Source of the DNA: a virus
Taxonomy: Duplodnaviria; Heunggongvirae; Uroviricota; Caudoviricetes
DNA length: 64,000 nt
Reading direction: 5' to 3' (one strand)
IMG/VR virus record: IMGVR_UViG_3300044950_000141
Span: 1,670-65,669 of that record
Shown here: piece by piece, positions 1,269 through 63,824 of the stretch
Layout: every line of letters starts with the position of its first letter
Numbering within the stretch: the first letter of the stretch is position 1
Program-made: the position numbers and the translations under genes
The notes under the pieces: model-generated
Told to the model about the DNA's origin: nothing
The model's input: only the letters and a program-made list of their open reading frames with translations
Databases searched by the model: none

Positions 1269-1552
1269 TTCTCTGTTATTTTAGTGGGTTCCCAAAGATA
1301 GGATAGCAAATGATATGGCCTATCACCAAACTTTGGTACAGCAATATACTGTCTGCCAACACATTTTGTTTTGAGTTCTTCTGGGGTGAGAGTCATCACC
1401 TTACCTTTGTATTCAATTTCATAACTCTCTTTCTTTTGAATACATTCTCTTACACTGTGATCAATTAGATCAACATACTTCTTGTCATGAAGTTTTAAGA
1501 TTGTCCTTTTCATGTTTATCTGCTTTTGTTTTTTTGTCGTGGCATTTTTCAC
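1265..1552 (-). CDS. hypothetical protein (95 aa)
   Basis: ORF track; stop/start overlap with 987..1268 typical of phage translational coupling. Confidence 0.45.
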   Translation of the reverse strand: MKNATTKKQKQINMKRTILKLHDKKYVDLIDHSVRECIQKKESYEIEYKGKVMTLTPEELKTKCVGRQYIAVPKFGDRPYHLLSYLWEPTKITEK

Positions 1553-1961
1553 ATAAGACTTGTAAGTTGTCTACCTCACAGAATAGTCTCTCTACAAATC
1601 CTGGTAAGTCTTTTGAACTCATCAAACTACCTGCAGGATGGATGTGATCAACATTAATCTTCTTCTCTATAAACCAATTCTTGCACACATTGCATTGATA
1701 CTCATACTTTTGTCTCTTGTTTACACCCTTGTACAATCTGCGTGCTTTAAGCTTGCATTCTGTAATAGGCTTCCAAAACCTGGACTTCTGTCTGAGAGCA
1801 CTGCGTATGAAACTCCAGAATGCTGATTCTGTCATAGTTCCAGCACATCTTGGTTTACTTACTACTCTTCTAGGTTTTTTAGAGATTCTTTTTGTTGCGT
1901 TTTTTATCATAATATATATATAATCCCAGGGTGTTACCCCTGGGAATACAAATTTAATCAA
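1485..1961 (-). CDS. HNH endonuclease
   Basis: C-x-x-C ... H-x-H ... C-x-x-C: YQCNVCKNWFIEKKINVDHIHP ... QVLCEKCHDKKTKADK is a classic HNH (His-Me finger) Zn-binding nuclease signature. Confidence 0.7.
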   Translation of the reverse strand: MIKFVFPGVTPWDYIYIMIKNATKRISKKPRRVVSKPRCAGTMTESAFWSFIRSALRQKSRFWKPITECKLKARRLYKGVNKRQKYEYQCNVCKNWFIEKKINVDHIHPAGSLMSSKDLPGFVERLFCEVDNLQVLCEKCHDKKTKADKHEKDNLKTS

Positions 1962-3423
1962 TTTCTACAATTCTTTTAGATATTTCTTGCTTTATTTCAT
2001 CAAGACTCTTAACAATTGTATACACTTCTACTGCAGATAGGGCAGGAAGATTGAAATCATATTTCATAGCCTCAGCTGTGAATCCTTCTTTAGCTTTCTC
2101 AGCCAAGTTATCCAACTCACGTACAGCATAAGACTCATCTAACTCAAGAGTATCAAAGTCTAGGTCATGTAAGATTTCTGTTGCTTCCTCACGTGGCACA
2201 GTCATAATTGGTAAATACTCATAACATCTACCTTTTGACTCACCAATACCTACAACCTTCATTGGGTTGATAAGTATAAGAACACTTGTATCACCACAGC
2301 CTACATAATGAATCTCATCACTAGTAAAGTGTAATCCTGCATGTGCACAATCTGCTCTTGACCAATTGCATTCGTCCATAGGCATACTCACTGGTCTACC
2401 AATTCTGATGTCAAATGTTCTTGTGTGAGCATCTGTAAATCTATTTTCTGCTCTATTAGGCAAGTCAAGATATAAGTCTGTTAAGTTACCAAGATTTTCA
2501 CCTTTAACTGCAAGAACAAGATCTTCATATTCACCTGTACCATCACACTCACAACACTCTTCACTATCTTCCCACTCATCACACTCAGGAATGGTTCCTG
2601 TACCATCACAATAAGAACATGTGCATGTTTCTTTTTTATACATAGCTTCTCCATGAACCATTTTATATTCACCATTCTCTAGGAATACAAAATACTCATC
2701 AGGCTTCTTCTTCCATACAGCCTTCACTTTATTATATGCATTAGATACAAACTGTACTAATTCTGTAGAACCATGCAATGTAACTACATTTCTCAAAGCT
2801 ACAAAGAAGCCTTGTTTAGTGATGCTGAAGCTATTCTTCTTCAAGAAGTTGAATAGATCATTTGCAACCTCAGCTCTTGGATTCAAGCAGCACCACATAA
2901 AGAATCTATGCAAAGCATTGAATTCATCGCTATCTGTGTTACCATGTTTACCAACCACTTCTAAGAATTCTTCCACTAATAATGGAGGTAGACTTCTATT
3001 GATACCCTTTAAATAAAGAGAACCATTTTTCATCTCAAACTCAGGAAGTGTAGCTAAGAACTTGGCACCTGCTGTTATAGCCTTAATTTTCTCATACTCA
3101 GCTTCAGCTTTTCTTCTCTCATCTTTTATCTCCTGTGTGCTCACAAGATCAAATAGACAAGCTTCTGTTTTACAATCTCTAGCAGAATTAAAATGTTCTG
3201 ATGTTGCTGGAGATTTGGTAATGATATTACCATCGTTCATTACAATAGTCAATGTATCATTAACCATTTTAATGTTTAGATAGGGCTTTCCTGAAGAATG
3301 ATAAGAAGGGGCTGTCTGCCCCTCCTCATTATCCAACTGGTTAAAAGCCTGCTCAATTTTGTTTTCTACTACCTTTTCAATTGTGCGTTCAATTGCACCC
3401 TTAAACCATTTCAAACTTAGCAT
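1954..3423 (-). CDS. hypothetical protein with clustered CxxC motifs (putative Zn-binding), 489 aa
   Basis: ORF track. Cys clusters: TCTCSYCDGTGTIPECDEWEDSEECCECDGTGEYEDL plus further Cys/His pairs (DECNWSRADCAHAGLHF). No catalytic motif recognised. Confidence 0.55.
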   Translation of the reverse strand: MLSLKWFKGAIERTIEKVVENKIEQAFNQLDNEEGQTAPSYHSSGKPYLNIKMVNDTLTIVMNDGNIITKSPATSEHFNSARDCKTEACLFDLVSTQEIKDERRKAEAEYEKIKAITAGAKFLATLPEFEMKNGSLYLKGINRSLPPLLVEEFLEVVGKHGNTDSDEFNALHRFFMWCCLNPRAEVANDLFNFLKKNSFSITKQGFFVALRNVVTLHGSTELVQFVSNAYNKVKAVWKKKPDEYFVFLENGEYKMVHGEAMYKKETCTCSYCDGTGTIPECDEWEDSEECCECDGTGEYEDLVLAVKGENLGNLTDLYLDLPNRAENRFTDAHTRTFDIRIGRPVSMPMDECNWSRADCAHAGLHFTSDEIHYVGCGDTSVLILINPMKVVGIGESKGRCYEYLPIMTVPREEATEILHDLDFDTLELDESYAVRELDNLAEKAKEGFTAEAMKYDFNLPALSAVEVYTIVKSLDEIKQEISKRIVEID

Positions 3424-3433
3424 GTTTTTCTTT

Positions 3434-5782
3434 TTAAATTGTTTCTAATTCTGTAATTGTGTCTTGTGTTAATACTTCCTCTAAAGGAGCATCTTCTGTT
3501 AATATGAGCTTGTAATGCTCTAGGTTTACTCTATGTTTGTGATATTTGAATAAATCAACTATAGCTGTTATCAATGGATTTTGTTTAACATTACTATAAC
3601 CCATTGTACCTAATATAGCATCTAAGAATGGTAGCTTAGTAAACACTTCATTAACCTGTTTGTACACTAAATATGTAGGTTGGTCAAATAAATTGTTTGC
3701 TATGGCATGTTCTATAACTGCTTTTCTAGTGTCAGCATCACAATAACTTCTATACTGGCTATTATGATACTGATGTAATGTCTGTAATTTATCTGCTAAA
3801 TCAATAGATACATCTCTAACTGTATTGATTCTTTTAAATGTATCACTATATGTTTCAATCAAATCCCTGATTAGAAACTCTGTAGCTATTGTTTTAAATG
3901 GTCTGTTTTTACCTTCCATAAATTTATCTATTGTTATCCAGTTATGTAAATCAGCTTTCTGTAAGTTATCATAGGTTGCTTGGGCCACTATTACAAATAA
4001 TGCATGTTTATTAAAACAAGACCAAGCATTATCCATTTTCTTCTTATCAGCTTCTTTAGCATAGACATTCAACGTAGACCTTTGATGGATCATTTCCATC
4101 TTAAATGTTGTAGGAACAAACTTGCAATGTTGATCAGATAGATCTATTTGCATTTGTGTACCCACCTTACCAGAGAATTCACCTTTTAGTCTAACCTTCT
4201 TAGGACCTGCTACAGCTGCAACTGTTACCTTCATTCTTTTAGCTTTCTGAGCATCCTTGAATGATTGTGGTACATCAATAGCATCTACATCTATAAAATC
4301 CTTAGCATATAATCCCACTACATATTGAAACTCTTGAATAAGCTGTCTCCATTGAGTTTTAGGATACATTCCTAAATTTAACACAGAATCATAATATTTA
4401 GCATAATCTATTTGACCAGTCTTGCTTCTAAGCTTAAATGCTGATTTCTTAACAAAATAACTAGTTTTATTATCTGGCAAAAGAGTCCTTAAATAGTCTT
4501 GCTTACCTTTAGGAAGAGAATCATCATAAATATATACACCACCAACAGCATATCCTGTTAAATCTGACATTCTCAAATGCTCATAATAATAGTTCTTAGC
4601 ATTTTGAAATTTACCATTACTAAATCTATATTTAAACTTATACTCAGCAAGTATATACTCTTTAGATTTTACAGCAAGTCTTTCTAGGTTTAATAGCTTT
4701 ATGTTATCTAGTTTAGGCTGTGCTACAGATACAGTAGAATGCTTTACAAGATCATCTATACAAATATCATCTTCTGTGCCTTTGTACCAGCATTTGATAT
4801 GCTTACTATTTTGACTATAGAATTCCATAATAGCTTTGATATCGCTTTGTGTAGTGATGGCATCATTAAACTTGTCCATGAATACATTACCCACTGTAGC
4901 TATCTTCTTTAGAATGGTTTCTTTAGCTTCTTTAGTATATCTAATAGCTTCTCTGTTTGGTGTAGGAAATAATCCATCACTAAGACTAAATCTCAAAGCC
5001 ATCTTCATACGTATTCTATCAATACCAAGCTTCTCCCAGTCAATTGGATAACTAACATTGTCCAAGCATAAATGCATGTCACTGTTCATAGCTATTTGAG
5101 AATATTGAAAATGTTCAGCTCTATGTATTGTAAAATCATTAGGAACATTATAGCTACCCATTGGTTCTACATCAAAGTAAACATTATCAAAATAAGCTAA
5201 TTGCTCTTTAATCTTGTTGTGGAAATTATATCTATCAGAATAATCCACTGGAACAATAACCTTTACACCATTAGGTTCTGCTGTAGGCTTTTCATACAAA
5301 AGGTCAATACTGTTTGTATCTTCTCCTTCATACATCATATACTTACGTTCCATAAAATCTTTTCTACATACAAAGTAGAAGCTAGAGCTATATGCCAATG
5401 GAGCCTTGAAACCAAGACCCATCATGCCTAATTCTGTATTGCTATTACGCTTGGTTGACTTACCATACTTACTGATGATGTTACGCACATCATCTGCATC
5501 TAAGCCAATACCAAAGTCTTCAACAGCAAATTCATATGTATTTGCCTGATTGTTTCTTTTAAACGAAACAATAACAGGTTCGTCACATCCAGCTCTTCTG
5601 TGACTATCCAGTGCATTAGATGCACATTCTCTGATAGTAGAGCCTATTGAATCTGAATATAGATTCTTACTTAACATCTGCATCAAGACTTGTGCAGAAT
5701 CTAAGTCTAGTGACATTTTCACAGTTTCCTGTGTTGTTCCTTCTTCAAGGATGTGTGCTTCTGTTTGTTTTTCTAAAATCAT
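3434..5782 (-). CDS. GHKL (Bergerat-fold) ATPase, Hsp90/MORC-like N-terminal domain, 782 aa
   Basis: N-box IRECASNALDS (cf. Hsp90 ELISNASDALDK). G1 box VEDFGIGLDADDV (DxGxG). G2 box GMMGLGFKAPLAYS (cf. Hsp90 GQFGVGFYSA). No Toprim motifs seen in the remaining ~600 residues. Confidence 0.6.
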   Translation of the reverse strand: MILEKQTEAHILEEGTTQETVKMSLDLDSAQVLMQMLSKNLYSDSIGSTIRECASNALDSHRRAGCDEPVIVSFKRNNQANTYEFAVEDFGIGLDADDVRNIISKYGKSTKRNSNTELGMMGLGFKAPLAYSSSFYFVCRKDFMERKYMMYEGEDTNSIDLLYEKPTAEPNGVKVIVPVDYSDRYNFHNKIKEQLAYFDNVYFDVEPMGSYNVPNDFTIHRAEHFQYSQIAMNSDMHLCLDNVSYPIDWEKLGIDRIRMKMALRFSLSDGLFPTPNREAIRYTKEAKETILKKIATVGNVFMDKFNDAITTQSDIKAIMEFYSQNSKHIKCWYKGTEDDICIDDLVKHSTVSVAQPKLDNIKLLNLERLAVKSKEYILAEYKFKYRFSNGKFQNAKNYYYEHLRMSDLTGYAVGGVYIYDDSLPKGKQDYLRTLLPDNKTSYFVKKSAFKLRSKTGQIDYAKYYDSVLNLGMYPKTQWRQLIQEFQYVVGLYAKDFIDVDAIDVPQSFKDAQKAKRMKVTVAAVAGPKKVRLKGEFSGKVGTQMQIDLSDQHCKFVPTTFKMEMIHQRSTLNVYAKEADKKKMDNAWSCFNKHALFVIVAQATYDNLQKADLHNWITIDKFMEGKNRPFKTIATEFLIRDLIETYSDTFKRINTVRDVSIDLADKLQTLHQYHNSQYRSYCDADTRKAVIEHAIANNLFDQPTYLVYKQVNEVFTKLPFLDAILGTMGYSNVKQNPLITAIVDLFKYHKHRVNLEHYKLILTEDAPLEEVLTQDTITELETI

Positions 5783-5786
5783 TGTG

Positions 5787-6149
5787 TTAGTATTTTACGT
5801 CTATGTTGAATTCTTTAAGAACTTCTTTATCTTCTAGAAGTTTTTCTATTGTTTCTTGGTCTGTAATGTTTTCTCTGTTTAATTTCATAATTCTATACTC
5901 ATCTGGTGTATTAACGTAGTTCTTACCCATTTGAGAAATGGTAAGTGGTTTCATTGGTTTATCACCTTTCCATTGGCCTAGTTGTATCCCATGCCAATTC
6001 TTTTGTGATGAAGCAGAACCAGGCCATAGATACTGGACTGTTCCTCCTTGTCCTCGTCCAAGATAAATACCAATGCTTATGTAATTATTACTAGCCACTG
6101 CTATGAGATCTCCTTTTTGGATGTCTCCTCCATTTTTAACTTTAATCAT
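5787..6149 (-). CDS. hypothetical protein (120 aa)
   Basis: ORF track; 4-nt spacing from neighbours. Confidence 0.5.
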   Translation of the reverse strand: MIKVKNGGDIQKGDLIAVASNNYISIGIYLGRGQGGTVQYLWPGSASSQKNWHGIQLGQWKGDKPMKPLTISQMGKNYVNTPDEYRIMKLNRENITDQETIEKLLEDKEVLKEFNIDVKY

Positions 6150-6151
6150 AA

Positions 6152-6451
6152 TTAAATGCTTTTAATGATTTCTGATTTTCTGATTTCTATTTTTTCATCC
6201 ATATGCATCATCAACATAACAAGCATTTCACGTGCTTCGTTATAATCTAGTTCTATTGCCTTCTTATTAGGAAATTTGAACTTAATACCATTACCATCAT
6301 CTGTTAATGTTAATGCTGTTTCTCCTTCACATGTCCAATCTTTATGGTTTGAGTAGTTTAATTTGCTTAATATGGCTCCTCTGTTAAGATCATAATCATA
6401 ATCTAACTCTCCATTTCTATTATTCTGTACATAGACTTGTAATTCTTCCAT
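6152..6451 (-). CDS. hypothetical protein (99 aa)
   Basis: ORF track; operon packing. Confidence 0.5.
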   Translation of the reverse strand: MEELQVYVQNNRNGELDYDYDLNRGAILSKLNYSNHKDWTCEGETALTLTDDGNGIKFKFPNKKAIELDYNEAREMLVMLMMHMDEKIEIRKSEIIKSI

Positions 6452-40563: not shown

Positions 40564-43014
40564 ATGGCTTGCAATCCTGGCGATCCTTGTTATAACGCAT
40601 ATTATCAACCTAGTGAAAACTGTGGTTCTATCCCTTGTGAAACTACAGCAGATCGTGTTATATATAATGGACCTAACCTTCCTTGTTCAGGAATTCAAAC
40701 TGGAGAAAACTTAGACTGTGCTCTATCAAAAATAGATGATGCTCTTTGTAATGGTGTTGTTGGTCTTAATGGTACCTCTGGTACTTCAGGTATATCTGGC
40801 TCGTCTGGCATATCTGGAACCAATGGAACATCTGCAACTTCTGGTGTTACAGGTCCTTCTGGAACAAATGGTACTTCTGGTTCATCTGGAATTACAGGTA
40901 CATCTGGAACATCATCAAGTGGTTCTAGTGGTACTAGTGGCTCTTCTGGTAGAGCTGGTTCAAATGGCACTAGTGGTTCTGCTGGTGTGAGTGGCACAGG
41001 TGGTACAAGTGGTACTTCAGGTACTTCTGCTACTAGTGGTACTTCAGGTACTGATGGTTCAAATGGAACTTCTGCTACTTCTGGAACAGATGGAAGTAGT
41101 GGAACTAGTGGTAGAGATGCCACAGCAGGAACATCTGGTCAAGATGGAACATCTGGTACAAGTGCAAGTTCTGGTACCTCTGCTTCTAGTGGATTAACTG
41201 GTACAGCTGGAACATCTGGAACATCTGGCACATCAGCATCTTCTGGAACTGCAGGTCAAGATGGAGATAGATATTTAACAAGTTCTACAACTTCTTTATT
41301 AATAGGAACAGGATCAAAAAGTTTAACAGTAGGAACAGGGTTAGCATATAGTGTTGCACAGACAGCTATCATAGTATATGATGTAAGTAATACAATGCAA
41401 GGAACTGTTACCTCTTATAATAGTGGAACAGGTGCATTAGTAATTAATGTCACCACCATAGCAGGTGCAGGAACCTATGCTGTATGGACAGTAAATCTGT
41501 TTGGTGCATCTGGTGGTAATGGTACTTCTGGAATAGCTGGTACTTCTGGCACAGCTGGTACGTCTGCTTCTTCAGGTTCATCTGGTTCTTCAGGGTCATC
41601 TGGTACTTCAGGTACCACAGGTACATCTGGAACATCTGCTTCTTCAGGTAGCTCAGGAAGTTCAGGTAGCTCAGGATCAACAGGTACATCAGGTACTGCT
41701 GCCACTTCTGGTACAAGTACTGGTACAAGTGGTACAAGTGGTGTAAATGCAACTTCAGGAACTGCAGGTATAAATGGTTCTTCTGGAACTGCAGGTACAA
41801 GCGGAGCGAGTGTGACAGGTCCTTCAGGATCTTCAGGTACCTCAGGGTCATCAGGATCATCAGGCTCCTCTGGATCTTCTGGATCTTCAGGTACTTCTGC
41901 TTCTTCTGGTTCAAGTGGATCAAGTGGATCAAGTGGATCATCTGGTTCTAGTGGGTCAAGTGGTACAGCTGGAGCTAATGGTGCTGTTGGTTCTTCAGGA
42001 ACATCAGGATCTTCAGGATCTTCAGGAACAAGTGGAGCTAATGGAACAAGTGGTTCATCTGGATCTTCTGGATCTTCTGGTTCAAGTGGCACTAGTGGTG
42101 CTAATGGAGCAAATGGTTCATCTGGTACTTCTGGAGCATCTGGTACAAGTGGTTCTTCAGGATCAAGTGGATCAAGTGGATCAAGTGGATCTAGTGGAAC
42201 ATCTGGAGCTAGTGGTACATCTGGATCATCTGGTAGTTCTGGTTCTAGTGGCTCTTCTGGATCTTCAGGAACATCTGGAGCTAATGGTGGTAATGGTTCC
42301 TCTGGAACATCTGGTGCTACTGGTGGTCCTGGATCACCAGGAACAAGTGGGTCGTCTGGTTCTAGTGGTTCTTCTGGATCTTCTGGAACATCTGGTGCTA
42401 CTGGTGGTCCTGGAGGAAATGGTTCTAGTGGTACAAGTGGAGCTAACGGAGGGAATGGTAGCAGTGGAACAAGTGGAACAAGTGGTGCAAGTGGTTCTTC
42501 TGGAACTGCAGGTACATCTGGTGCGAATGGAGGAAATGGATCTTCTGGAACATCTGGAAATACTGGTACTCCTGGGTCTTCAGGAACCTCTGGAGCCAAT
42601 GGTGCTAGTGGTACATCAGGAACAGGATTTACTTCTATATCTCCAACCACTGCAGAAGCTGTACTTACAGCTAATGGTACATCTAATAGTGCAACAGCAA
42701 ATACAGGAGTTTATATTTCTAGTGGAATTTATTTAAATGCTGCTGGTTATTTTGAAACATCAGATATTAGATTTAAAAATGTATTAGAAACAAACCCATC
42801 TATAGATTTGCCACTAGATGTAATTAAATTTACAAGAACAGATGAAGACAGTAATGCAATTAGATATGGTTATTCTGCACAACAAGTACAATCAGTACTA
42901 CCAGATGCAGTTTCAGGTGATGAAAAATTATCTGTAAATTACATGGATGTGCATACATTAAAAATTGCAGCCCTAGAAAAAAGAATTGCTGAACTAGAAG
43001 CTAAATTAAAATAA
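40564..43014 (+). CDS. collagen-like tail fiber with C-terminal peptidase S74 intramolecular chaperone domain
   Basis: Two long (G-X-Y)n tracts (X,Y mostly S/T/A/N). C-terminus ETSDIRFKNV...YGYSAQQVQSVLPDAVSGDEKLSVNYMDV...LEKRIAELEAKLK matches the S74 consensus (SDxRxK Ser/Lys dyad, GfiAQEvqevlPeaV, terminal coiled coil). Confidence 0.75.
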   Translation: MACNPGDPCYNAYYQPSENCGSIPCETTADRVIYNGPNLPCSGIQTGENLDCALSKIDDALCNGVVGLNGTSGTSGISGSSGISGTNGTSATSGVTGPSGTNGTSGSSGITGTSGTSSSGSSGTSGSSGRAGSNGTSGSAGVSGTGGTSGTSGTSATSGTSGTDGSNGTSATSGTDGSSGTSGRDATAGTSGQDGTSGTSASSGTSASSGLTGTAGTSGTSGTSASSGTAGQDGDRYLTSSTTSLLIGTGSKSLTVGTGLAYSVAQTAIIVYDVSNTMQGTVTSYNSGTGALVINVTTIAGAGTYAVWTVNLFGASGGNGTSGIAGTSGTAGTSASSGSSGSSGSSGTSGTTGTSGTSASSGSSGSSGSSGSTGTSGTAATSGTSTGTSGTSGVNATSGTAGINGSSGTAGTSGASVTGPSGSSGTSGSSGSSGSSGSSGSSGTSASSGSSGSSGSSGSSGSSGSSGTAGANGAVGSSGTSGSSGSSGTSGANGTSGSSGSSGSSGSSGTSGANGANGSSGTSGASGTSGSSGSSGSSGSSGSSGTSGASGTSGSSGSSGSSGSSGSSGTSGANGGNGSSGTSGATGGPGSPGTSGSSGSSGSSGSSGTSGATGGPGGNGSSGTSGANGGNGSSGTSGTSGASGSSGTAGTSGANGGNGSSGTSGNTGTPGSSGTSGANGASGTSGTGFTSISPTTAEAVLTANGTSNSATANTGVYISSGIYLNAAGYFETSDIRFKNVLETNPSIDLPLDVIKFTRTDEDSNAIRYGYSAQQVQSVLPDAVSGDEKLSVNYMDVHTLKIAALEKRIAELEAKLK
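40765..41265 (+). repeat. collagen-like G-X-Y coding repeat tract 1
   Basis: GTSGTSGISGSSGISGTNGTSATSG... triplets. Confidence 0.7.
41500..42630 (+). repeat. collagen-like G-X-Y coding repeat tract 2 (~370 residues)
   Basis: GSSGSSGSSGTSGANG... triplets; generates spurious long ORFs in other frames on both strands. Confidence 0.7.
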
Positions 43015-53828: not shown

Positions 53829-54695
53829 ATGTCTAAAACAGTAATAATAAGATTAACATGCTCAGGTGGCAGAACAGGACCCTTTGATATCACTGATAAC
53901 TTAGGGACAGTCTTGGGCACTGACATTACTAAGCAAAATCTAATTGATGGGTATACTGTCAGTGTAGATGATGCTGTTACTAAGATTATTATAACATCTG
54001 TGGGTAAGTGTCATACAGTTTTAGAAGTTACAATTGGTACTGCTACTATAGAAGACCTTGCTGCATTAAGATACAATGTATGTAATACAGCGTCTATGTG
54101 GAGACACTTAACAAGCGTAGTGCACTATAACAAATACTATGATAATGTAGAACCTTATATCATTGAGTATCCATTCTCTTATCAGAGCTATGATGAGATA
54201 CTTCAGAATGTAAAAGACTATAGTAAGGTATATAACTACCTACCTATTCTAGATGGTGTGTTTAATGACAATGCTCAGATAGCTGTTGATAATCAATGGT
54301 TTAACAAAGCTGTATTATACAATAGCCAACAGTCCACAGGTATGTTAGAGTTAGTACCTAAGCCAATGCATAACTTAAGACAATACTTAACCTACCCAAT
54401 CTATAATACTGAAAGCAAAACTATCACTTATACTAAGTCAGATAATTTCTATCAATATAATACTTTCTGGGGGTTAGTTAAAAATAAAGCATTACCTTTG
54501 TTTACAACAAGTTGTGAGTCTTTATCAATAGATAAGGTTGTAAATCAAGTGAATATGGATTATGGAAAAAGATCATTTAAGAAAGAACCATTAAGAGCTA
54601 AAGACTTAAAGGTTAGACATATCCTTGATAACAGTTCTATAGCTCACATTGTTTCTCAATTCATTATTACACCTGCTCAAATCTCTTATAAGTAA
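53829..54695 (+). CDS. hypothetical virion protein (288 aa)
   Basis: ORF track. Confidence 0.45.
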   Translation: MSKTVIIRLTCSGGRTGPFDITDNLGTVLGTDITKQNLIDGYTVSVDDAVTKIIITSVGKCHTVLEVTIGTATIEDLAALRYNVCNTASMWRHLTSVVHYNKYYDNVEPYIIEYPFSYQSYDEILQNVKDYSKVYNYLPILDGVFNDNAQIAVDNQWFNKAVLYNSQQSTGMLELVPKPMHNLRQYLTYPIYNTESKTITYTKSDNFYQYNTFWGLVKNKALPLFTTSCESLSIDKVVNQVNMDYGKRSFKKEPLRAKDLKVRHILDNSSIAHIVSQFIITPAQISYK

Positions 54696-57600
54696 TGGCA
54701 AACTGGTTAGACAAATATGAACAAGGAGGAATGGTCTTAAAGAAAAAGACTAAGGATAACTATGGGAAGAGACCTAACCCTAATGATGTCCAAGCATCTG
54801 TAGGTCCTGACTTTGTAGGTCTTGGATATAATACCAAGGGTAGAGACTACTCTCCTGCATGGGGTGGACAGTTTCAGGATGGTGGTAAGTTGACTCTTCC
54901 TGAAGCAATTGTATATGGACATAAAGATCCTAGTACTAAAGCTTATTTTGATAAAGTTAGAACAGATGCAGAAAAATGGCAAGATGAATATTATTGGAAT
55001 ACCCCAACAGCTGGTTATAATGCATTAGAACAAATGCATAGTAAATATGGAGCTCCTAAAATAAATACAATTAGAGAAAAGGATACAGCTTGGTATAACC
55101 CTATCACTGATTCTATGAATATTTCTATTCCAAAATATGGTGATGAATATGGTAACCCAGTAGAAGATCTATTTTTACATGAATTAGCTCATAAAGTTCA
55201 AGCAAATAAAAAAGGAAATGTAGGTTTTGTAAAAGATTTTGTTGGTAAAGATTTAATAAATACTTTAAAGAATGTAGATTCAAGTGATATGTTTACTAAA
55301 AAGGGATGGTTAGATGCATACGGAAAAAATTATAATACTCCAGGCACTGTAGAAAATGAAGCACATTCAGTTATTGCACCTAAATTAGAAGAGGAATATA
55401 GAGATATACGTAGTAAACAATATGATAGACTTTATGGTGATATGGCTATGGGTGGTGCACTACCAGGTGCTGTAGGATTTACATACGCACGTACACAAGA
55501 CCCTGCTCCTGATAATGGTAAGTATGCTAAGAAGACAAAAGCAAGTGCTCAGAATGGCTCTGTAATCAAAGATGATAGAGGTCAGTTAGCATACCCAGGT
55601 GAGATAACAGAGATAGGTTCTAATGACATCACTATGCAGGGAGTTGACTATCCTGTACTTGGTGTATCTGATACAGGTGATACACAGATGATGTATCCTG
55701 ATCAAGATTATAAGTTTGATGGTGAGAAGGTTACAGAATTTCCTATGGCTCAAAATGGAAGAAATATTCCTACAACAGCAGATAGTACTCGTTTATATAA
55801 TTCCCAAATGGCTCTTAATAAGTTTTATGAAAATGAAATGAAAGCTGGTAGGCTTAAGATGAATAATATAGCAACTATTTTTGATTTTAATAATTATAGT
55901 GGATTAGATAAGGATTTAAGAAAAGAAAACTTAGATTTTTATCGTAATCAAATACTACGTAGATCAAATAAATTATATACATTTGATGATTTATATAAAA
56001 AGATTTTTAATCTATCCCCTGAACAAGTTAGTAAACTAGAAAATAAAGGTCTTGGTCAAACTAAAGGTAGTTCTGAATATCAAGATTATTATAGAGATCT
56101 TATAACTCCAATGCAAAACTTAGCGTCTCCATTTGCATTAATTGATAAACGTATAGCTCCACAAAGAAGGATTTCTTATAGTCCTAAAAGTTCAGATTAT
56201 CCAGGAGGAGAGGTATCAGTGTATGACTATGATCCTATATTAATAAAACCAGTGAATATGCTTACTCCAGAGGAGAGAGCACTTAGAATTAAAAAATATG
56301 GAAAAGATAGTGGCATAAAAGAAACAGTTTCAAAACCTATACAGAAACCAGTTTCAAAGCCTATACCAAAATCTGAACCAAAATCTGAACCAGCTCCAGT
56401 AGTTGCACAACAAGCTACTCCTGAAAAACCAACTCATCAACCAAAATCTTTATATGAATATGAAGGAGAGCAAGTTATGGCTCCTGTTCCTAGTGGTGGT
56501 GGTGCTGCAATGGTGGGAGTTAGAAAGAAAGATGGTACAATAGAATATATTAAACCAGAGGATTACCAAAGAATGAGTGTTCCTAAATATGGTCAAGACT
56601 ATATTAAGAGCAAACAAAAAATGCAAGGTGGTGGTTGGTTAGATAAGTATCCTGAACCAATGCGTCAAGATGCTACAAGAGTAGCTCCTCCTGTATTAAA
56701 ACTTACAGACGAAGAGAAGTTAGCAAACGTAGCAAAGTCTGACCAAGCTCAGAAGAGAGCATTGAATACTGCTAAAGAAGTTATATCAGAAAGACAAAAG
56801 AACAAAGCTACAAAAGGAGATTTAAACACTCCTGGATCTTGGAAGGTAGAAGAGAAAGCTAGATTGTTTCCTAGTAGTGTAGGCGGAGTTGGTGAAATGG
56901 TTGATGAGTATATTAACCCAGCTACATATGTAGGTGTCTTAGCAGATGCTCTAGGAGAATCAGTTGCAGCAAGAGACCCAAAAGGTATTGCTACATCATT
57001 AGGACTTTCTGCTATAGGAGGTGGATTAGGACTTGATCCTCTTGGTGGTGGTATTAAAGCTGTTAAAACTTTGACTAAACAATTACCAAATGCAGCTAAA
57101 TATACTTTAGGTAGTATGTACAAAACTTATAATGAAAATATATATCCTATTTTAAATAAAGAAAAACTAGCACCTTATGCTGATAAAATAGCTAAGCTAA
57201 ATGAAATGAATGCTGCTACAAAAGAGTCTTTAAAATCAGGAGAGTTAAGAAAAAGATTAATTAATCAAGGACTAACTGAAGAAGAAGTTTCAAATATGAA
57301 AGTTCCTAATTTAGCTTTCTTTGCAGATAATAAAAGTCCTGGAACCTCTTATAGCAGATATCAAGATGCTAATAAGTCACTTAAACTAGAGGGAATTAAT
57401 ATTAATTTTGACCAATTAAATCGTTTAAAAGATAATGGCATTTCACTAGAAGCAGCTTATGAACATGAAGTAGGACATTTTTTACAAAGACCTTTAGCTG
57501 ATAAAAACCCTTTAAATGATTTAAACAAATATAATGAGTTATTAAAAAATTATAAAAAAGATGTAAGAATTTATAAAAAAGAAGGTAAGAACTTATCTAA

Positions 57601-58102
57601 TACATTTGGGCTTGATAAAAATAAAATAAGTAAAGGAGATGAGAGAGAGAGAATGCGTTTTTTATCAAGAGCCATGAAAGAAAAGGACGAAGCAGCAGTG
57701 AATTGGTTTGATAGAAAACCTCAACTTCCTGAAAGACCTAACTATGAAGCAGAACTAGATAAAAAAGTACGTGACTTAAATTTTGATAATGAAAATAGTT
57801 TTTTAAATTATTTTAACAAAAATCATGAAGCATATCCTTTCTTAAGAGAAATGAGACAAACTATGGTAGATGAAGGATTTATAAAAGATAAGTATCAAGA
57901 TATAAATAAAGATGCTATTTCCAATTTTTTAAATAGCAAAACAAAAAATAGATTAAAAGAAACACTTAGTCGTAAAGAAAAAGAGAGTAATACTGATATG
58001 TTACATACTCTTTTAAAAACTCTTCCAGCAGTAGCACCAGCAGTTATTGCATCTCAATCACAAGAAAAGAAAAATGGTGGCTGGTTAAACAAATATAAAT
58101 AA
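54695..58102 (+). CDS. large virion protein with two zincin HExxH motifs and four copies of a GWL(D/N)(K/A)Y motif (putative tandem metallopeptidase / cargo polyprotein)
   Basis: HELAH at 55178..55192 and HEVGH at 57464..57478. NWLDKY at 54701..54718, GWLDAY at 55304..55321, GGGWLDKY at 56627..56650 and NGGWLNKYK at 58073..58099 (C-terminus). Confidence 0.6.
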   Translation: MANWLDKYEQGGMVLKKKTKDNYGKRPNPNDVQASVGPDFVGLGYNTKGRDYSPAWGGQFQDGGKLTLPEAIVYGHKDPSTKAYFDKVRTDAEKWQDEYYWNTPTAGYNALEQMHSKYGAPKINTIREKDTAWYNPITDSMNISIPKYGDEYGNPVEDLFLHELAHKVQANKKGNVGFVKDFVGKDLINTLKNVDSSDMFTKKGWLDAYGKNYNTPGTVENEAHSVIAPKLEEEYRDIRSKQYDRLYGDMAMGGALPGAVGFTYARTQDPAPDNGKYAKKTKASAQNGSVIKDDRGQLAYPGEITEIGSNDITMQGVDYPVLGVSDTGDTQMMYPDQDYKFDGEKVTEFPMAQNGRNIPTTADSTRLYNSQMALNKFYENEMKAGRLKMNNIATIFDFNNYSGLDKDLRKENLDFYRNQILRRSNKLYTFDDLYKKIFNLSPEQVSKLENKGLGQTKGSSEYQDYYRDLITPMQNLASPFALIDKRIAPQRRISYSPKSSDYPGGEVSVYDYDPILIKPVNMLTPEERALRIKKYGKDSGIKETVSKPIQKPVSKPIPKSEPKSEPAPVVAQQATPEKPTHQPKSLYEYEGEQVMAPVPSGGGAAMVGVRKKDGTIEYIKPEDYQRMSVPKYGQDYIKSKQKMQGGGWLDKYPEPMRQDATRVAPPVLKLTDEEKLANVAKSDQAQKRALNTAKEVISERQKNKATKGDLNTPGSWKVEEKARLFPSSVGGVGEMVDEYINPATYVGVLADALGESVAARDPKGIATSLGLSAIGGGLGLDPLGGGIKAVKTLTKQLPNAAKYTLGSMYKTYNENIYPILNKEKLAPYADKIAKLNEMNAATKESLKSGELRKRLINQGLTEEEVSNMKVPNLAFFADNKSPGTSYSRYQDANKSLKLEGININFDQLNRLKDNGISLEAAYEHEVGHFLQRPLADKNPLNDLNKYNELLKNYKKDVRIYKKEGKNLSNTFGLDKNKISKGDERERMRFLSRAMKEKDEAAVNWFDRKPQLPERPNYEAELDKKVRDLNFDNENSFLNYFNKNHEAYPFLREMRQTMVDEGFIKDKYQDINKDAISNFLNSKTKNRLKETLSRKEKESNTDMLHTLLKTLPAVAPAVIASQSQEKKNGGWLNKYK

Positions 58103-58122
58103 ATCATACAATAGAGTATAAT

Positions 58123-61053
58123 ATGAAAGACCAAATATTAAAGATTGCTAAAGTAAAGTCTGAGAAGGAGTTCTACAAGAAGTATCCATCAGAGGAAGCA
58201 TTTATGAAAGCTCATGGTAAAGCATTTAAGAAAGCTGCTATGGGTAGTAAGATGGTCAATGACCAGTTACATCAGTTAACTGATTTTGGCAATCCTCCTA
58301 TTGCTCAGAAGGGAGCACAAACACCTAAGTTTGAATTTAATAAATTTGGTGCCACTGCAGACAATCCTCAAGGAAGTTTTAGTTCTGGAGCTGGACAAGC
58401 TGGTATGGCTGGTCTTCAAAACTTAGATAAGATTGCTGGTGGTATTGAAGCAATTGGTGCACAGAAGAAAGCTATTAAAAAAGCTGATCAAAGTGCTCAA
58501 TTGTCAGGACTTTCTTTACAAGCTCAACAAACAATGAAACCACCTAAGAATCAATATGTTAGACCAGAAGATGCTTTGGTACAACCAGGACAATTAGGTA
58601 ATCCTTATGGAACTGGTACAAACTATTTAGGTGCTAAAAATGGTACAATGATTGGTGGCAATCCTACAGAGATTCAAAATACATATGCTCCTACAGGAGA
58701 TATATATAATGATCTTGGATATGAACCAATGGAAGAAGCATACAAACAATACAGACGTGGTGGTAATATGCCTAAAGCAGAGTTTGGAGAATACTTCCAA
58801 GACTCAGGTCAAGCACAAATTGGTAGTGCTGTAGGAGAATCTATTGGTTCTGCCTTTGGTCCAGCAGGTGCTGCTGTTGGTAAGTTCTTAGGTAAGGTTG
58901 GAGGTAACTTATTAGGTGGTGCTAAAGATGCTAGAAACTTACAAGCACAAAAAGATAAAACTGCTTTGGCTCAAAGCCAAATGGGATTTGAACAAGCTAG
59001 ATCACAAGGTCCTCTTAATGCTAATCTAGAACATGGTGGATGGGTGAGTCATGACTGGCAGCCACAAGTGTTTGCTAAGTTTGGTGAGTATGATGCTAAA
59101 GATCTTTTGAAACCTCCACATGATGCAGACATGTTAAGAGCTGGTGGACACATTGCACAAGTGGGCTATACAGCTCCTAGTGCAGAAGCATTATACACTG
59201 GTAGAAAAGACATGCCTAAAGCTTTTGTAGGACTAGCTATGGCAGCTCCACTGATGGCAGCAAATATGGCTACTGGATATGTTATAGATAAGTTTGGTAG
59301 AACTCGTTTAAAAAATGCATTAGAAAAAACTCCTCAATTACTTGGAGCTATGGGAGGTATGGAAGATGGTGGAAAGATGGCACTAGGTGGAGAGTTACAA
59401 ATAGGAGATGGTGGATACGCAGAGACATTATCGTACAATCCTAACTTACCTGGTGGTGAGATAGGAATGTTCAGAGGAGCATCACATGACAATGGTGGCA
59501 TACAAACTCAGTATGGTGAGAATGGTGTAGAGGTAGAAGGTGGTGAACCATTTACTGTTCTAGAAGACAATGGCTCAGAAGATGGCAATAACCTAGAAGG
59601 TGGTGGATCTAAAGAGAACCTTGTTGTGTTTGGTAACATGAAAATTAATAAAAACATAGCAGATCTTATGGGAGATCCAAAAGCAAAGGGTAAGAAGTTT
59701 AAAACTTACATAGCTGATGTAGCTAAGAATGATGCAAAGCAATTAAAGAGAATCAACAAAGGTCTTGAGTTGATTCAAAGTGCAGATGAGAACAGTGCAT
59801 TTGATCATTTGCAATTAAACACAGGACAGGCAAATTTAATGGGAGGAAAAGCTTGGCAAGAGATCAATGCTGAGAAGATTAAGCAAGCAGGTATTGTACA
59901 AGATTCTATTCACAAAACAGCTAGACAACTAGGTGCTAAGAGTGATAAATTAGCTGAGGGCAAGATAGAGAAAGAAACAGATCCAAGGATGATTGCTCAA
60001 GGTGGTACAAAGATGGGGAGATATCAGGAATATACAAATGATCTAGAAGATTATGATGTAGAAGAGATACTTCCTGCTTCAGAAAATATAAATGCCTTAA
60101 GTGACATTGCTCCTAGTATTGAAGACATGCCAGGAGATCCTTCACCAAAGAAGAGCAGTAAGTTACTAAATGCATTAAAGTCAACAGGTAATTTTTTAGG
60201 AAAAGGATTTGAGAAATATGGTAATACTGCTTTATCTAACTTAGAAAACTTTTTAAGACCTAGTAATGCTAATGAAGACTTACCTCCAGACCAGTTGTAT
60301 CCTGAATACTTTGCATTGGCTAACAATCAGTTAGATCCAGTGAGAGCTCAGAAATTCCAACCAATGTTAGAAACTCCATATAACATTTCTTTGAATGATC
60401 AATTGAATGCTATTGATTCTCAATCTAGAGCAATCATGAGACAAGTTGGTAATAACCCTGGTGTATTAGCAAACATTGCAGGTCAAACATTAGAAGCTAA
60501 GAATAGGGTGCTAGGAGAAACAAACAGAATTAACCAAGCAAACGCTATGGGAGCTTATGATAGAAATAGAAATAAGTTAGATGATGCTCAAAAATTAAAC
60601 TTACAAATTCTTGACAATCAATATGTTAGACAAGCACAAGCTAAATCTAATACCAAAGCTCAAACCCAAGCTGCTTTAAGTTCTATAGCTGCTAAGACTG
60701 CACAACAAAGAGCTACTAATAGAAAGCTAGCTATTATGGAGAACATGTATGGATTCAGATTCTCTCCAAGTGGCAGAGCTATTAATATGAATGCTCCTGC
60801 TCAATTTGATACATCAGGTATGAATGCAAGAAGGTCTGGACTTTCAAGTGCAGGTTTACCAACTAACAAGAGATTTACAATAGACTCTGTAACAGGAGAA
60901 CCTGTTGGAATCAGAACATTAACTAAAGAAGAAATGGCAGGTAGTAGTTCTTCTCTATCAGAAATAGACAACTTCTTAGACAAGAATGGTGGTAAGACAC
61001 CAAAGACAAAAGCTAGAAATAGTTCAATTGTCAAAGCTCTAAAAAACCTCTAA
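58123..61053 (+). CDS. large Gly/Ala-rich virion protein (976 aa), candidate ejected/cargo protein
   Basis: ORF track; low-complexity G/A/Q-rich. Confidence 0.5.
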   Translation: MKDQILKIAKVKSEKEFYKKYPSEEAFMKAHGKAFKKAAMGSKMVNDQLHQLTDFGNPPIAQKGAQTPKFEFNKFGATADNPQGSFSSGAGQAGMAGLQNLDKIAGGIEAIGAQKKAIKKADQSAQLSGLSLQAQQTMKPPKNQYVRPEDALVQPGQLGNPYGTGTNYLGAKNGTMIGGNPTEIQNTYAPTGDIYNDLGYEPMEEAYKQYRRGGNMPKAEFGEYFQDSGQAQIGSAVGESIGSAFGPAGAAVGKFLGKVGGNLLGGAKDARNLQAQKDKTALAQSQMGFEQARSQGPLNANLEHGGWVSHDWQPQVFAKFGEYDAKDLLKPPHDADMLRAGGHIAQVGYTAPSAEALYTGRKDMPKAFVGLAMAAPLMAANMATGYVIDKFGRTRLKNALEKTPQLLGAMGGMEDGGKMALGGELQIGDGGYAETLSYNPNLPGGEIGMFRGASHDNGGIQTQYGENGVEVEGGEPFTVLEDNGSEDGNNLEGGGSKENLVVFGNMKINKNIADLMGDPKAKGKKFKTYIADVAKNDAKQLKRINKGLELIQSADENSAFDHLQLNTGQANLMGGKAWQEINAEKIKQAGIVQDSIHKTARQLGAKSDKLAEGKIEKETDPRMIAQGGTKMGRYQEYTNDLEDYDVEEILPASENINALSDIAPSIEDMPGDPSPKKSSKLLNALKSTGNFLGKGFEKYGNTALSNLENFLRPSNANEDLPPDQLYPEYFALANNQLDPVRAQKFQPMLETPYNISLNDQLNAIDSQSRAIMRQVGNNPGVLANIAGQTLEAKNRVLGETNRINQANAMGAYDRNRNKLDDAQKLNLQILDNQYVRQAQAKSNTKAQTQAALSSIAAKTAQQRATNRKLAIMENMYGFRFSPSGRAINMNAPAQFDTSGMNARRSGLSSAGLPTNKRFTIDSVTGEPVGIRTLTKEEMAGSSSSLSEIDNFLDKNGGKTPKTKARNSSIVKALKNL

Positions 61054-61139
61054 CTATTTCAGTTAGAGTAAATTAACAAAAATCATTATCGCTCTTGGTA
61101 GATCCAAATTTTTAAATTACATTTGCTAACATTATTATT

Positions 61140-63824
61140 ATGGCATCCTTTACAGATCAAATATCACAGTTTAACCCCTACATCCAGGAACTCCCAGTTG
61201 AGGCCATGGTGCAAGTTGGCATGGCCAAACAGGCCCAATATGACCAAGGTGTACGAAAAGTTCAGAGCTATATTGATAGAGTATCTGGTCTAGAAATAGC
61301 TAAGCCTCAACATAAGCAGTATCTTGAGTCAAAGATGAATGAGCTTGGTAACAGATTAAAGACTGTAGCTGCTGGAGATTTCTCTAATCAACAATTAGTT
61401 AATTCTGTTGCTGGTATGACAGGTCAGGTTGCTAAAGATCCCATAGTTCAAAATGCTGTATATTCTACAAGTGTTATTAAGAAAGGGTATTCAGAAATAG
61501 AAGCTGCTAGAAAGGCAGGTAAGTCAGGTAAAGACAATGAAGATTTTTATGAATCTAATGTAAATAACTGGATGACTGATCAAGATTTAAAAACTCCTTT
61601 CAAAGGAAGATATACACCCTATACAGATGTAGATAAGAAGCTTAGAGGATTGGTAGAAGAACTTAAGAAAAACCCTTCATCATCAAGTATTGATCAACCT
61701 TTTGTAAGAAATGATAAAGGAGAAACACTTTACTTTAAGGATGCTAAAGATAACATAGGTTCTACAGATCCTTCACAAGGAGAAAAAAGAACTGATCTTG
61801 ATATGCTTAAGATCAAAGTAAAAGGAACACCTGCTCAACAGATATATGATACCTTTGTTGATAACTTAACTAGCAACGATATAGAACAGTTAAAAATTAC
61901 TAGTTGGGCTAAGTTTAAAGGAGCAAACACTAAAACTTTTCAAGATTCTATACTAGATACATATAAGTTAAAAAAGGATATGCTAAATGAACAGATTACT
62001 AATTTAGCTGTTGAGTTACAAAATCCTAAATTAACAAGTGCACAAAAGTCTCAAGGAAATGCAATTCTTAAGAACTTGACAGACATGTATGATGGTGGAG
62101 TTCTTGATAAAAAAATGAATGAAGAACTTTCTACTCTTGATAAAAAGATTAATGAGCAAGGATTAGATACAGTTAAATATGATGTTTATGTAGATAATCA
62201 TTTCAGTCGTCTTGCTAAAGATTTATCTTTCAAAACATATGAAGAAGAAAGGGTAGCTAACCCTGCATCTCAAGCACTATTAGCTAGACAAAAGTTTCAA
62301 TTAGATCAACTTCAGTTTCAAGATGAAAGTAAGTATCGTGCTTTAAATTACGCTACAACAAGAGAGAGACTTGCATGGGAAAAATTAGTAAAAGCACAAG
62401 AGCTTGCACCTACTAATTTACTAGATGTAACTGAAGGAACAATTGGTACAGGTAAAAACATTCCTACAGTGGGAAGCGAAAGAAAAGACTTAGTAGATGT
62501 ATTATCACAAAAGTCTGAGTTAGATAGCAAATGGGCTAAATATATATTTCCTGATTTAAAAGAGGCTAATCAATATACAACTGCTCTTGGGGGATTGTTA
62601 AATGATTATAGGAAGAATCCTCAAATGAATCTGACTGCTAATCAAAAAGCATATATAAGAGAAGCTGAAGCATTGGATAATGCAGCTCAGTCAAAAATAA
62701 ATGCAATAAGCTATGCAGAGAAGAAAGGATTAGATAAAGCTATTGATAAAACAGCAAATGCTCTTGGTACTAATGATGTTGTAATTAATGGAAAAACGTT
62801 TACATCAAAAGAACTAGCAGACGTTGCTGTTAGAATGGCTGAATATAAAAAAGAGGGAATTCCAAGTTATACATCAGCTGCTACATCAGAATATGGTGTA
62901 CCAGGTCGTCCTGGTATTCCTGCTACTTTTGATGTGAGAGGAGCAACTGATTTCTTTTCAAATTATCAAGGTGGTAAATACTATTCAATAGTAGCTCCTC
63001 TTTTAAAAAGACAAACAGGAAAAGCTTTAACTGCTAGTGAAACAGATGCTTTAAATAAATTTAATACAGCATCAGATATAGTTAAACGTGAAACAGGAAA
63101 TATACCTAAGTATGAATCTGAAGCTTTGGTAGGTATAAGTCCAAGTACTGTTTCACAAAAGGCAACTTTAACTCCTGATCTTGTAAAAGGTGATGAATTA
63201 TCTATTGATAAATTCTTGACCAAAGCTATAGGTAGATACAATGCTCTTGAACAAAAACCAAATTGGAATGCTGATAATATAGCTAAGCTATGGAACACTC
63301 GTAAAAGTGGTGCTGAAGGAGGTGCAAAAGTTGGTTGGGAGCTTGAGAAGTTTAGAGATGGTACTGCACAAATAATAGTATCACAAGGAACCACTGTAGA
63401 AATAATTCCTGTACTTCCTGAAGATTTACGTAACTACTTCCCACAAGCAACACAAGTGAGTCCATTTAATCAAATAAGAGATTTAATATATACATCTCCT
63501 ACTAAGACAACAAACTTAGCAGGTGCAACAGATGATAATCCTACTAATGCAGTGAATGCTAGATACTCAGGATATGATCTTCCTCAATTAGAAAAAGCTA
63601 AAGATGCTCCTTTATTTAGATATGATATTATTGGAAGTCCAAATAATACAGGAAGATCAGAGACAGATCAATTTTTATTTGTTGGATATGTAAAAGATCC
63701 TAAAACAGATGGTTGGAAAAGAAAAGAGTTAAGTGATGGATATCAGGGAGAAGGAAAGATGTTACAAATAATGAGTCTTTGGAATAAAGATAATATAACA
63801 GAAGCACAAAAAACTTGGAAATAA
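61140..63824 (+). CDS. large virion protein (894 aa), candidate ejected/cargo protein
   Basis: ORF track. Confidence 0.5.
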   Translation: MASFTDQISQFNPYIQELPVEAMVQVGMAKQAQYDQGVRKVQSYIDRVSGLEIAKPQHKQYLESKMNELGNRLKTVAAGDFSNQQLVNSVAGMTGQVAKDPIVQNAVYSTSVIKKGYSEIEAARKAGKSGKDNEDFYESNVNNWMTDQDLKTPFKGRYTPYTDVDKKLRGLVEELKKNPSSSSIDQPFVRNDKGETLYFKDAKDNIGSTDPSQGEKRTDLDMLKIKVKGTPAQQIYDTFVDNLTSNDIEQLKITSWAKFKGANTKTFQDSILDTYKLKKDMLNEQITNLAVELQNPKLTSAQKSQGNAILKNLTDMYDGGVLDKKMNEELSTLDKKINEQGLDTVKYDVYVDNHFSRLAKDLSFKTYEEERVANPASQALLARQKFQLDQLQFQDESKYRALNYATTRERLAWEKLVKAQELAPTNLLDVTEGTIGTGKNIPTVGSERKDLVDVLSQKSELDSKWAKYIFPDLKEANQYTTALGGLLNDYRKNPQMNLTANQKAYIREAEALDNAAQSKINAISYAEKKGLDKAIDKTANALGTNDVVINGKTFTSKELADVAVRMAEYKKEGIPSYTSAATSEYGVPGRPGIPATFDVRGATDFFSNYQGGKYYSIVAPLLKRQTGKALTASETDALNKFNTASDIVKRETGNIPKYESEALVGISPSTVSQKATLTPDLVKGDELSIDKFLTKAIGRYNALEQKPNWNADNIAKLWNTRKSGAEGGAKVGWELEKFRDGTAQIIVSQGTTVEIIPVLPEDLRNYFPQATQVSPFNQIRDLIYTSPTKTTNLAGATDDNPTNAVNARYSGYDLPQLEKAKDAPLFRYDIIGSPNNTGRSETDQFLFVGYVKDPKTDGWKRKELSDGYQGEGKMLQIMSLWNKDNITEAQKTWK

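Follow-up and report, generated by a model that had tools for sequence, protein, structure and literature searches.

The question raised by this locus is what a GHKL-type ATPase and a partner protein are doing among the replication genes of a tailed phage. The locus lies on the minus strand of a 64,000-nucleotide (nt) stretch of viral DNA (Caudoviricetes; IMG/VR record IMGVR_UViG_3300044950_000141, positions 1,670 to 65,669), which is referred to throughout as the window. A gene for a protein of 782 amino acids (aa) at 3434..5782 is followed, after a gap of 10 nt from stop to start, by a gene for a 489-aa protein at 1954..3423 and then by an HNH endonuclease gene, all on the minus strand. This arrangement was recorded correctly in a first-pass annotation made from the sequence, which flagged the pair as a possible new topoisomerase, chaperone or remodeller. 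The analysis described here corrects that view by identifying the two genes as the long-known rIIA and rIIB, not a new system. Taken jointly, the evidence makes it very likely that the pair is an early-acting, ATP-dependent module that counters abortive infection of the RexAB type.

The assignment of the 782-aa protein draws on PHROG, BLASTP, hhalign and tblastn comparisons. The protein matches phrog_612, 'RIIA lysis inhibitor', with E=1.6e-58, its residues 1-730 aligning to positions 1-709 of the 725 in the profile, and six more RIIA PHROG families follow. BLASTP aligns residues 1-294 with T4 rIIA at E=2e-17, and hhalign of a 128-sequence clade profile against residues 1-307 of T4 rIIA returns a probability of 96.8% and E=2e-10. 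Relatives are found by tblastn in 2,557 of 50,697 phage records, the best of them annotated as rIIA, rIIA-like or 'protector from prophage-induced early lysis'. Judged by these sequence matches, the 782-aa protein is an rIIA orthologue. The proportion of records also matches the published frequency of rIIB, which, in an operon with rIIA, is carried by ~5% of the phages in databases (PMC13434031). Megablast of positions 1400..6200 against the same 50,697 records gives no match, which indicates that there is no close cultured relative. Wider rIIA diversity is reached with the clade-wide profile; a profile search seeded with distant rIIAs returns close relatives only and adds no diversity. The top-listed tblastn match, which also has the widest query coverage, is an rIIA-like gene (796 aa) of Ralstonia jumbo phage RsoM2USA. 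This gene and the 334-aa gene directly downstream of it, which is placed like rIIB by position alone, are both labelled 'hypothetical protein' in GenBank (L010 3435..6822).

Compared with T4 rIIA (NP_049616, 725 aa) and PHROG 612, the window protein has identical GHKL motif residues and a shared core extending to residue ~306 that includes an invariant S/N-R-E motif. Overall length is similar, and in both phages the gene lies immediately upstream of rIIB. The two proteins differ in that identity is 23% over the first ~300 residues while the C-terminal ~470 are unaligned, and in that the T4 gene lies in the T4 early region whereas the window gene lies in the replication module of a crAss-like genome.

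The GHKL (Bergerat-fold) ATP-binding domain occupies residues ~45-180 (5243..5650, minus strand). As the first-pass annotation had claimed, the sequence contains three ATP-binding boxes (residues 51-60, 88-95 and 118-127), which carry the N-box residues E52/N56/D59, the G1 residues D89-G91-G93 and the G2 residues G119-G122-G124-K126. Each of these residues, which together form the GHKL catalytic set, is invariant in an alignment of the window rIIA with those of T4 and of Rhodococcus, Ralstonia, Caulobacter and Streptomyces phages, as are S109, K111 and, beyond the ATP-binding domain, R277-E278. Because the catalytic residues are intact, rIIA is expected to be an active ATPase. Pfam matches to HATPase_c_3 (E=4e-5) and HATPase_c (E=8e-5) fall just short of the curated cut-offs, and HATPase_c is matched at E<=1e-3 by 33 of 33 sampled orthologues. 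The conserved core (residues 1-306; 4865..5782, minus strand) comprises this domain and a putative second domain containing R277-E278. That second domain, which would be transducer- or middle-like, is suggested by alignments of 208-299 residues to two-domain constructs and by the conservation of the core to residue ~306.

The affinities of the ATPase domain within the GHKL group are mixed. Fold comparison places GRP94 (12.7), TRAP1 (12.6), topo VI-B (12.5), ParE (12.2) and GyrB (11.9) at the top, followed by the T6 topo II ATPase (11.0), SMCHD1 (10.8), MutL (10.7), MORC2/3 (9.6-9.9) and sacsin (9.1). The sequence profile ranks topo VI-B first (E=5e-9) and TRAP1 next (3e-5). Since both rankings mix Hsp90-type and topoisomerase proteins, rIIA is a generic clamp-type GHKL member and not specifically Hsp90/MORC-like. 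The first-pass statement that its boxes are closest to Hsp90/MORC rather than GyrB/MutL is accordingly not borne out. A MORC protein would be recognised by a GHKL and S5 region closest to MORC and by CW or coiled-coil accessory domains; neither characteristic is found in rIIA, and the MORC reading is rejected on these membership tests. With the solved GHKL ATPases (Hsp90/GRP94/TRAP1, topo VI-B, ParE/GyrB, MutL and MORC) rIIA shares the Bergerat fold and ATP motifs, and it probably has, as they do, a second domain whose packing resembles that of a transducer or middle domain. It lacks their family-specific downstream domains, namely Toprim, H2TH, the MutL C-terminal domain, the CW finger and the Hsp90 C-terminal dimerisation domain.

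The 489-aa protein is the rIIB orthologue, in a long form. It matches the RIIB PHROGs 609 (2.8e-15), 11221 (5e-9) and 36818 (4e-6), and tblastn finds only the rIIB genes of IAS virus and cr116_1 (crAss-like) and of Xanthomonas phage Xoo-sp13. BLASTP against T4 rIIB (NP_049889, 312 aa) gives two collinear segments, window residues 105-213 to T4 118-217 and 329-403 to 221-301, with E-values of 2e-6 and 3e-6. An exhaustive search of 1.84 billion representatives yields 1,211 relatives; a 72-sequence alignment drawn from the best 150 of these long-form representatives, used as an hhalign profile, matches T4 rIIB residues 106-304 with 99.4% probability and E=5.4e-21. The blocks shared with T4 rIIB and the three PHROGs are collinear, with window residues 75-213 and 329-406 corresponding to T4 106-304. 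A PDB sequence search with rIIB gives no match. The AlphaFold2 model is confident (predicted local distance difference test, pLDDT, 86; predicted template modelling score, pTM, 0.78), and Foldseek against predicted viral structures gives 31 matches at E<=1e-3, of which the named ones are nearly all RIIB and reach E=2e-11. The position directly after rIIA agrees with these results.

The identification of rIIB bears on the alternative of a type II topoisomerase, divergent and made of two subunits (a phage topo II or an enzyme like topo VI/VIII), in which the 782-aa protein is the ATPase and the 489-aa protein the DNA-cleaving subunit. This is highly improbable. The first-pass annotation had proposed a test for a Spo11/Toprim or winged-helix-tyrosine fold in the 489-aa protein, and the outcome is negative, the sequence, profile and structure matches of that protein being to RIIB; the pair includes no type IIB topoisomerase A subunit (Toprim plus winged-helix catalytic-tyrosine, Spo11). 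On the ATPase side, the topo VI-B model NCBIfam NF003218 scores 29.8 bits against a cut-off of 274 and matches only residues 45-132, and the curated topo VI-B, Hsp90 and MutL models all score roughly ten- to thirty-fold below threshold. No Toprim follows the GHKL-transducer module of rIIA as it would in a type IIA enzyme (GyrB/ParE/T4 gp39), and Pfam detects neither Toprim nor any other topoisomerase domain in the window protein or 33 orthologues, in agreement with the earlier observation that no Toprim is apparent. With these membership tests failed, the topoisomerase reading is largely refuted.

The window rIIB is 177 residues longer than that of T4, with a different N-terminus, a C-terminal helical extension and an insertion of ~115 residues (residues 214-327; 2443..2784, minus strand) recognised by alignment with T4 and crAss-like short-form rIIB. 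Where the window protein has residues 214-328, T4 rIIB runs directly from residue 217 to 221 and the IAS-virus protein from 155 to 161. The flanks of the insertion are conserved across the 72-sequence alignment and its tip is variable. The tip in this clade bears two CxxCxGxG motifs, the first with C269 and C272 and the other with C290 and C293, and between them lies a D/E-rich loop whose length varies. Among 59 aligned sequences (58 distinct clade orthologues and the window protein) each of the four cysteines is kept in 88-90%, although the loop varies and some lineages have lost cysteines. The motif is confined to the closest relatives among the best 150 representatives at 50% identity, and T4 rIIB lacks it. 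Most simply, the four cysteines would form one DnaJ-type zinc knuckle, a putative feature placed at 2533..2619 (minus strand) from the translation and cysteine conservation; a role for zinc in rIIB would follow from this assignment. The putative zinc-knuckle insertion is specific to the clade and is the only unusual feature of the rII pair here. The first-pass description of the protein as rich in CxxC pairs is accurate in that such pairs are present, but they reduce to this single putative knuckle, and the other conserved cysteines (C178/C179, C352, C359, C376 and C400) are scattered, C359 falling within the family-wide motif CSxGLH.

A DnaJ-type feature next to a GHKL ATPase brings up a further alternative, in which an Hsp90-like chaperone and a zinc-finger (DnaJ-like) co-chaperone fold phage proteins. 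The two CxxCxGxG motifs, conserved in the clade, amount to one potential zinc centre; there is no Pfam DnaJ match to rIIB, and model confidence is the lowest of its part of the protein at residues 271-290 (pLDDT 64-72). For its part, rIIA has no full-length match to the Hsp90 family model with its N, middle and C-terminal dimerisation domains. The chaperone reading, rejected on this Hsp90 membership test, is very improbable.

The aligned blocks of window and T4 rIIB also contain the motifs TDxHT and CSxGLH (residues 330-365), for which the T4 positions read FDCHS and CSRGLH. T330 and H365 do not vary in the 72-sequence alignment, and its majority consensus includes D331, H333 and C359. These residues are a possible metal or active site.

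The two genes are strictly paired across phages. In every annotated comparator examined rIIA is followed by rIIB, in T4 across the record ends, and the genes are directly consecutive in Rhodococcus phage Dorin, Ralstonia RsoM2USA (where both are annotated hypothetical and the second is taken as rIIB by position), Caulobacter Seuss, Streptomyces Blueeyedbeauty, IAS virus and cr116_1. Among 80 IMG/VR loci with rIIA relatives at 46-97% identity, 69 have at least 1.7 kb downstream, and in all 69 rIIB lies next to rIIA on the same strand with a median gap of 55 nt. Co-conservation of the two genes in related phages, which the first-pass annotation had named as a check, is thereby confirmed. The Foldseek matches of rIIB include a natural 1,049-aa RIIA-RIIB fusion from Escherichia phage RB43 (BFVD Q56C47), and PHROG 609 (1,055 positions) matches window rIIA in its N-terminal part and window rIIB in its C-terminal part, consistent with fused forms. 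The fusion and the profile independently support a physical partnership of rIIA and rIIB. In cr116_1 an intron-encoded endonuclease gene interrupts rIIA itself, leaving parts of 126 and 566 aa (L007 2327..5533).

What such a pair does is known chiefly from other phages. The rII genes are dispensable on ordinary hosts and are needed against RexAB of lambda, a membrane-depolarising abortive-infection system, a requirement that holds for rII pairs of <40% identity from five genera, including N4 (PMC11879866; bioRxiv 10.1101/2025.11.20.689424). Phages whose divergent pairs are knocked down (T4, MM02, EdH4, SUSP1 and N4) become sensitive to lambda RexAB (PMC11879866). In Escherichia coli RIIB is toxic by itself, and it is enough to trigger a CARD/gasdermin defence, from which escape mutants emerge by loss of rIIB (PMC10312443).

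The counter-defence reading of the window pair joins this background to gene structure, homology, intact ATPase motifs and the strict co-conservation and order of the genes. The homologous genes of T4, N4 and other phages suggest that the pair acts early in infection and depends on ATP. The rIIA protein would dimerise and cycle on ATP like other GHKL proteins, in a complex with rIIB. The target of the pair may be a RexAB-type abortive-infection system, encoded by the host or by a prophage, which acts by membrane depolarisation and would be kept from aborting the infection. The variable parts, which are the C-terminus of rIIA and the insertion tip of rIIB, would set target specificity. The first-pass interpretation is thus partly retained: an anti-defence role is likely by homology, and the topoisomerase, chaperone and MORC-type readings are rejected.

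Several points weigh against this function. The functional evidence comes from other phages, and the C-terminal ~470 residues of rIIA, which are variable between lineages and have no PDB match, do not align with T4 rIIA by pairwise or profile methods. Even in T4 the molecular mechanism is unresolved, and the specificity of the Rex interaction is still unclear (PMC11879866). No membrane-spanning segment is predicted in rIIA or rIIB (maximum 19-residue hydropathy 0.89 and 1.21), so any membrane role would be peripheral. One published view holds rIIB to be a transcription factor (PMC7824862), and the location inside the replication module would also fit a DNA-related role.

Some of these points favour the alternative that the proteins are rIIA and rIIB by descent but act on DNA or on replication or transcription complexes, as a MORC/MutL-like clamp or regulator, and not at the membrane. 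To the lack of membrane-spanning segments and the transcription-factor proposal can be added the unvarying place of the pair between primase and uracil-DNA glycosylase, in Crassvirales as in the window phage, the HNH nuclease gene that follows in 66 of 69 clade loci, the topoisomerase genes adjoining T4 rIIA, and the nearest structural neighbours of the ATPase, every one of them a GHKL machine that clamps DNA or a client. On the other hand, genetics from several phage genera tie rII to RexAB counter-defence and find it dispensable without Rex (PMC11879866; 10.1101/2025.11.20.689424), and RIIB expression alone is toxic and triggers gasdermin defence (PMC10312443). Neighbouring genes say little about function in phage early regions, and rIIB is acidic (84 D+E against 54 K+R), which is atypical of a DNA binder. 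A DNA-directed role is therefore unlikely. Its more specific version, in which rIIA, a long-form rIIB bearing the zinc knuckle and acidic loop, and the conserved HNH nuclease have become a distinct module of three parts in this abundant crAss-like clade, fixed among the replication genes and acting on DNA or replication complexes, is distinctly improbable; if true, it would provide a new handle on the biochemical mechanism of rII.

Under the preferred counter-defence reading, the window pair is a divergent member of a widespread phage counter-defence pair. The PADLOC models match neither rIIA nor rIIB, and therefore neither protein fits a catalogued defence-system component. Databases call these proteins 'hypothetical', and the rII annotation can be transferred to ~1,650 homologues (matches below E-value limits). 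The putative, clade-specific zinc knuckle at the variable tip of long-form rIIB is a candidate specificity determinant, as is the family-wide TDxHT / CSxGLH motif pair, and both features could guide work on the action of the rII proteins, unresolved some seventy years after these were discovered (PMC11879866).

Within the locus, the start of rIIA lies 4 nt past the stop of a 120-aa open reading frame (ORF), and rIIA and rIIB probably share one transcript. A terminator-like hairpin (1924..1945, minus strand), found by a consensus scan only, lies directly after the rIIB stop and before the HNH start. It reads TCCCAGGG-GTAACA-CCCTGGGA, has an 8-bp stem with 6 G-C pairs and is followed by a T/A run, which suggests that the rII genes form the end of a transcription unit. 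No promoter is assigned because sigma-70-type matches are no commoner than in shuffled sequence (25 found, 26 expected). The HNH ORF spans 1485..1961 (minus strand), and its gene encodes 141 aa if started at the ATG at 1910, the length also called on identical contigs (1485..1910; phrog_1985 E=2.4e-23, Pfam HNH); it is a neighbour of the rII pair, without membership being implied. In loci where rIIA is ~46-50% identical the HNH protein is mostly ~65-77% identical, and is often better conserved than rIIA. This conservation and its presence in 66 of the 69 related loci argue against a sporadic homing endonuclease.

The surrounding genome is that of a crAss-like phage. The minus-strand replication arm encodes a DNA polymerase, two helicases, a Sak4-like ATPase, primase, DUF932 and a uracil-DNA glycosylase-like protein, and the plus-strand structural arm encodes terminase, portal, major head protein, tail fibres and a 1,583-aa virion protein. 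The terminase is closest to those of Leptolyngbya phage Lbo-JY46 (40%), Cellulophaga phi4:1/phi17:2 (31%) and crAss-like phages (27-28%), and JGI metagenomes contain contigs of ~117 kb that are identical or nearly so. Among cultured or curated phages the window rIIB is matched best by Crassvirales (IAS virus, cr116_1; Steigviridae), at 27-29% identity for the rII proteins, with the difference that crAss-like rIIB is a short form (320 aa) without the insertion. In IAS virus and cr116_1, as in the window phage, primase is followed by rIIA, rIIB and uracil-DNA glycosylase, and these in turn by a PD-(D/E)XK exonuclease and a ribonucleotide reductase, and an rII pair inside the replication module is therefore the norm for this phage group. 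The crAss link rests on GenBank annotations, since a literature search on rII in crAss-like phages found nothing on topic.

Elsewhere in the window, PHROG gives no match at E<=1e-5 for three large consecutive ORFs (1,135, 976 and 894 aa) at 54695..63824 (plus strand), which lie downstream of the 1,583-aa virion structural protein. A collagen-like tail-fibre gene at 40564..43014 (plus strand) coincides with a local rise in G+C to 0.42, and long spurious ORFs overlap it on both strands.
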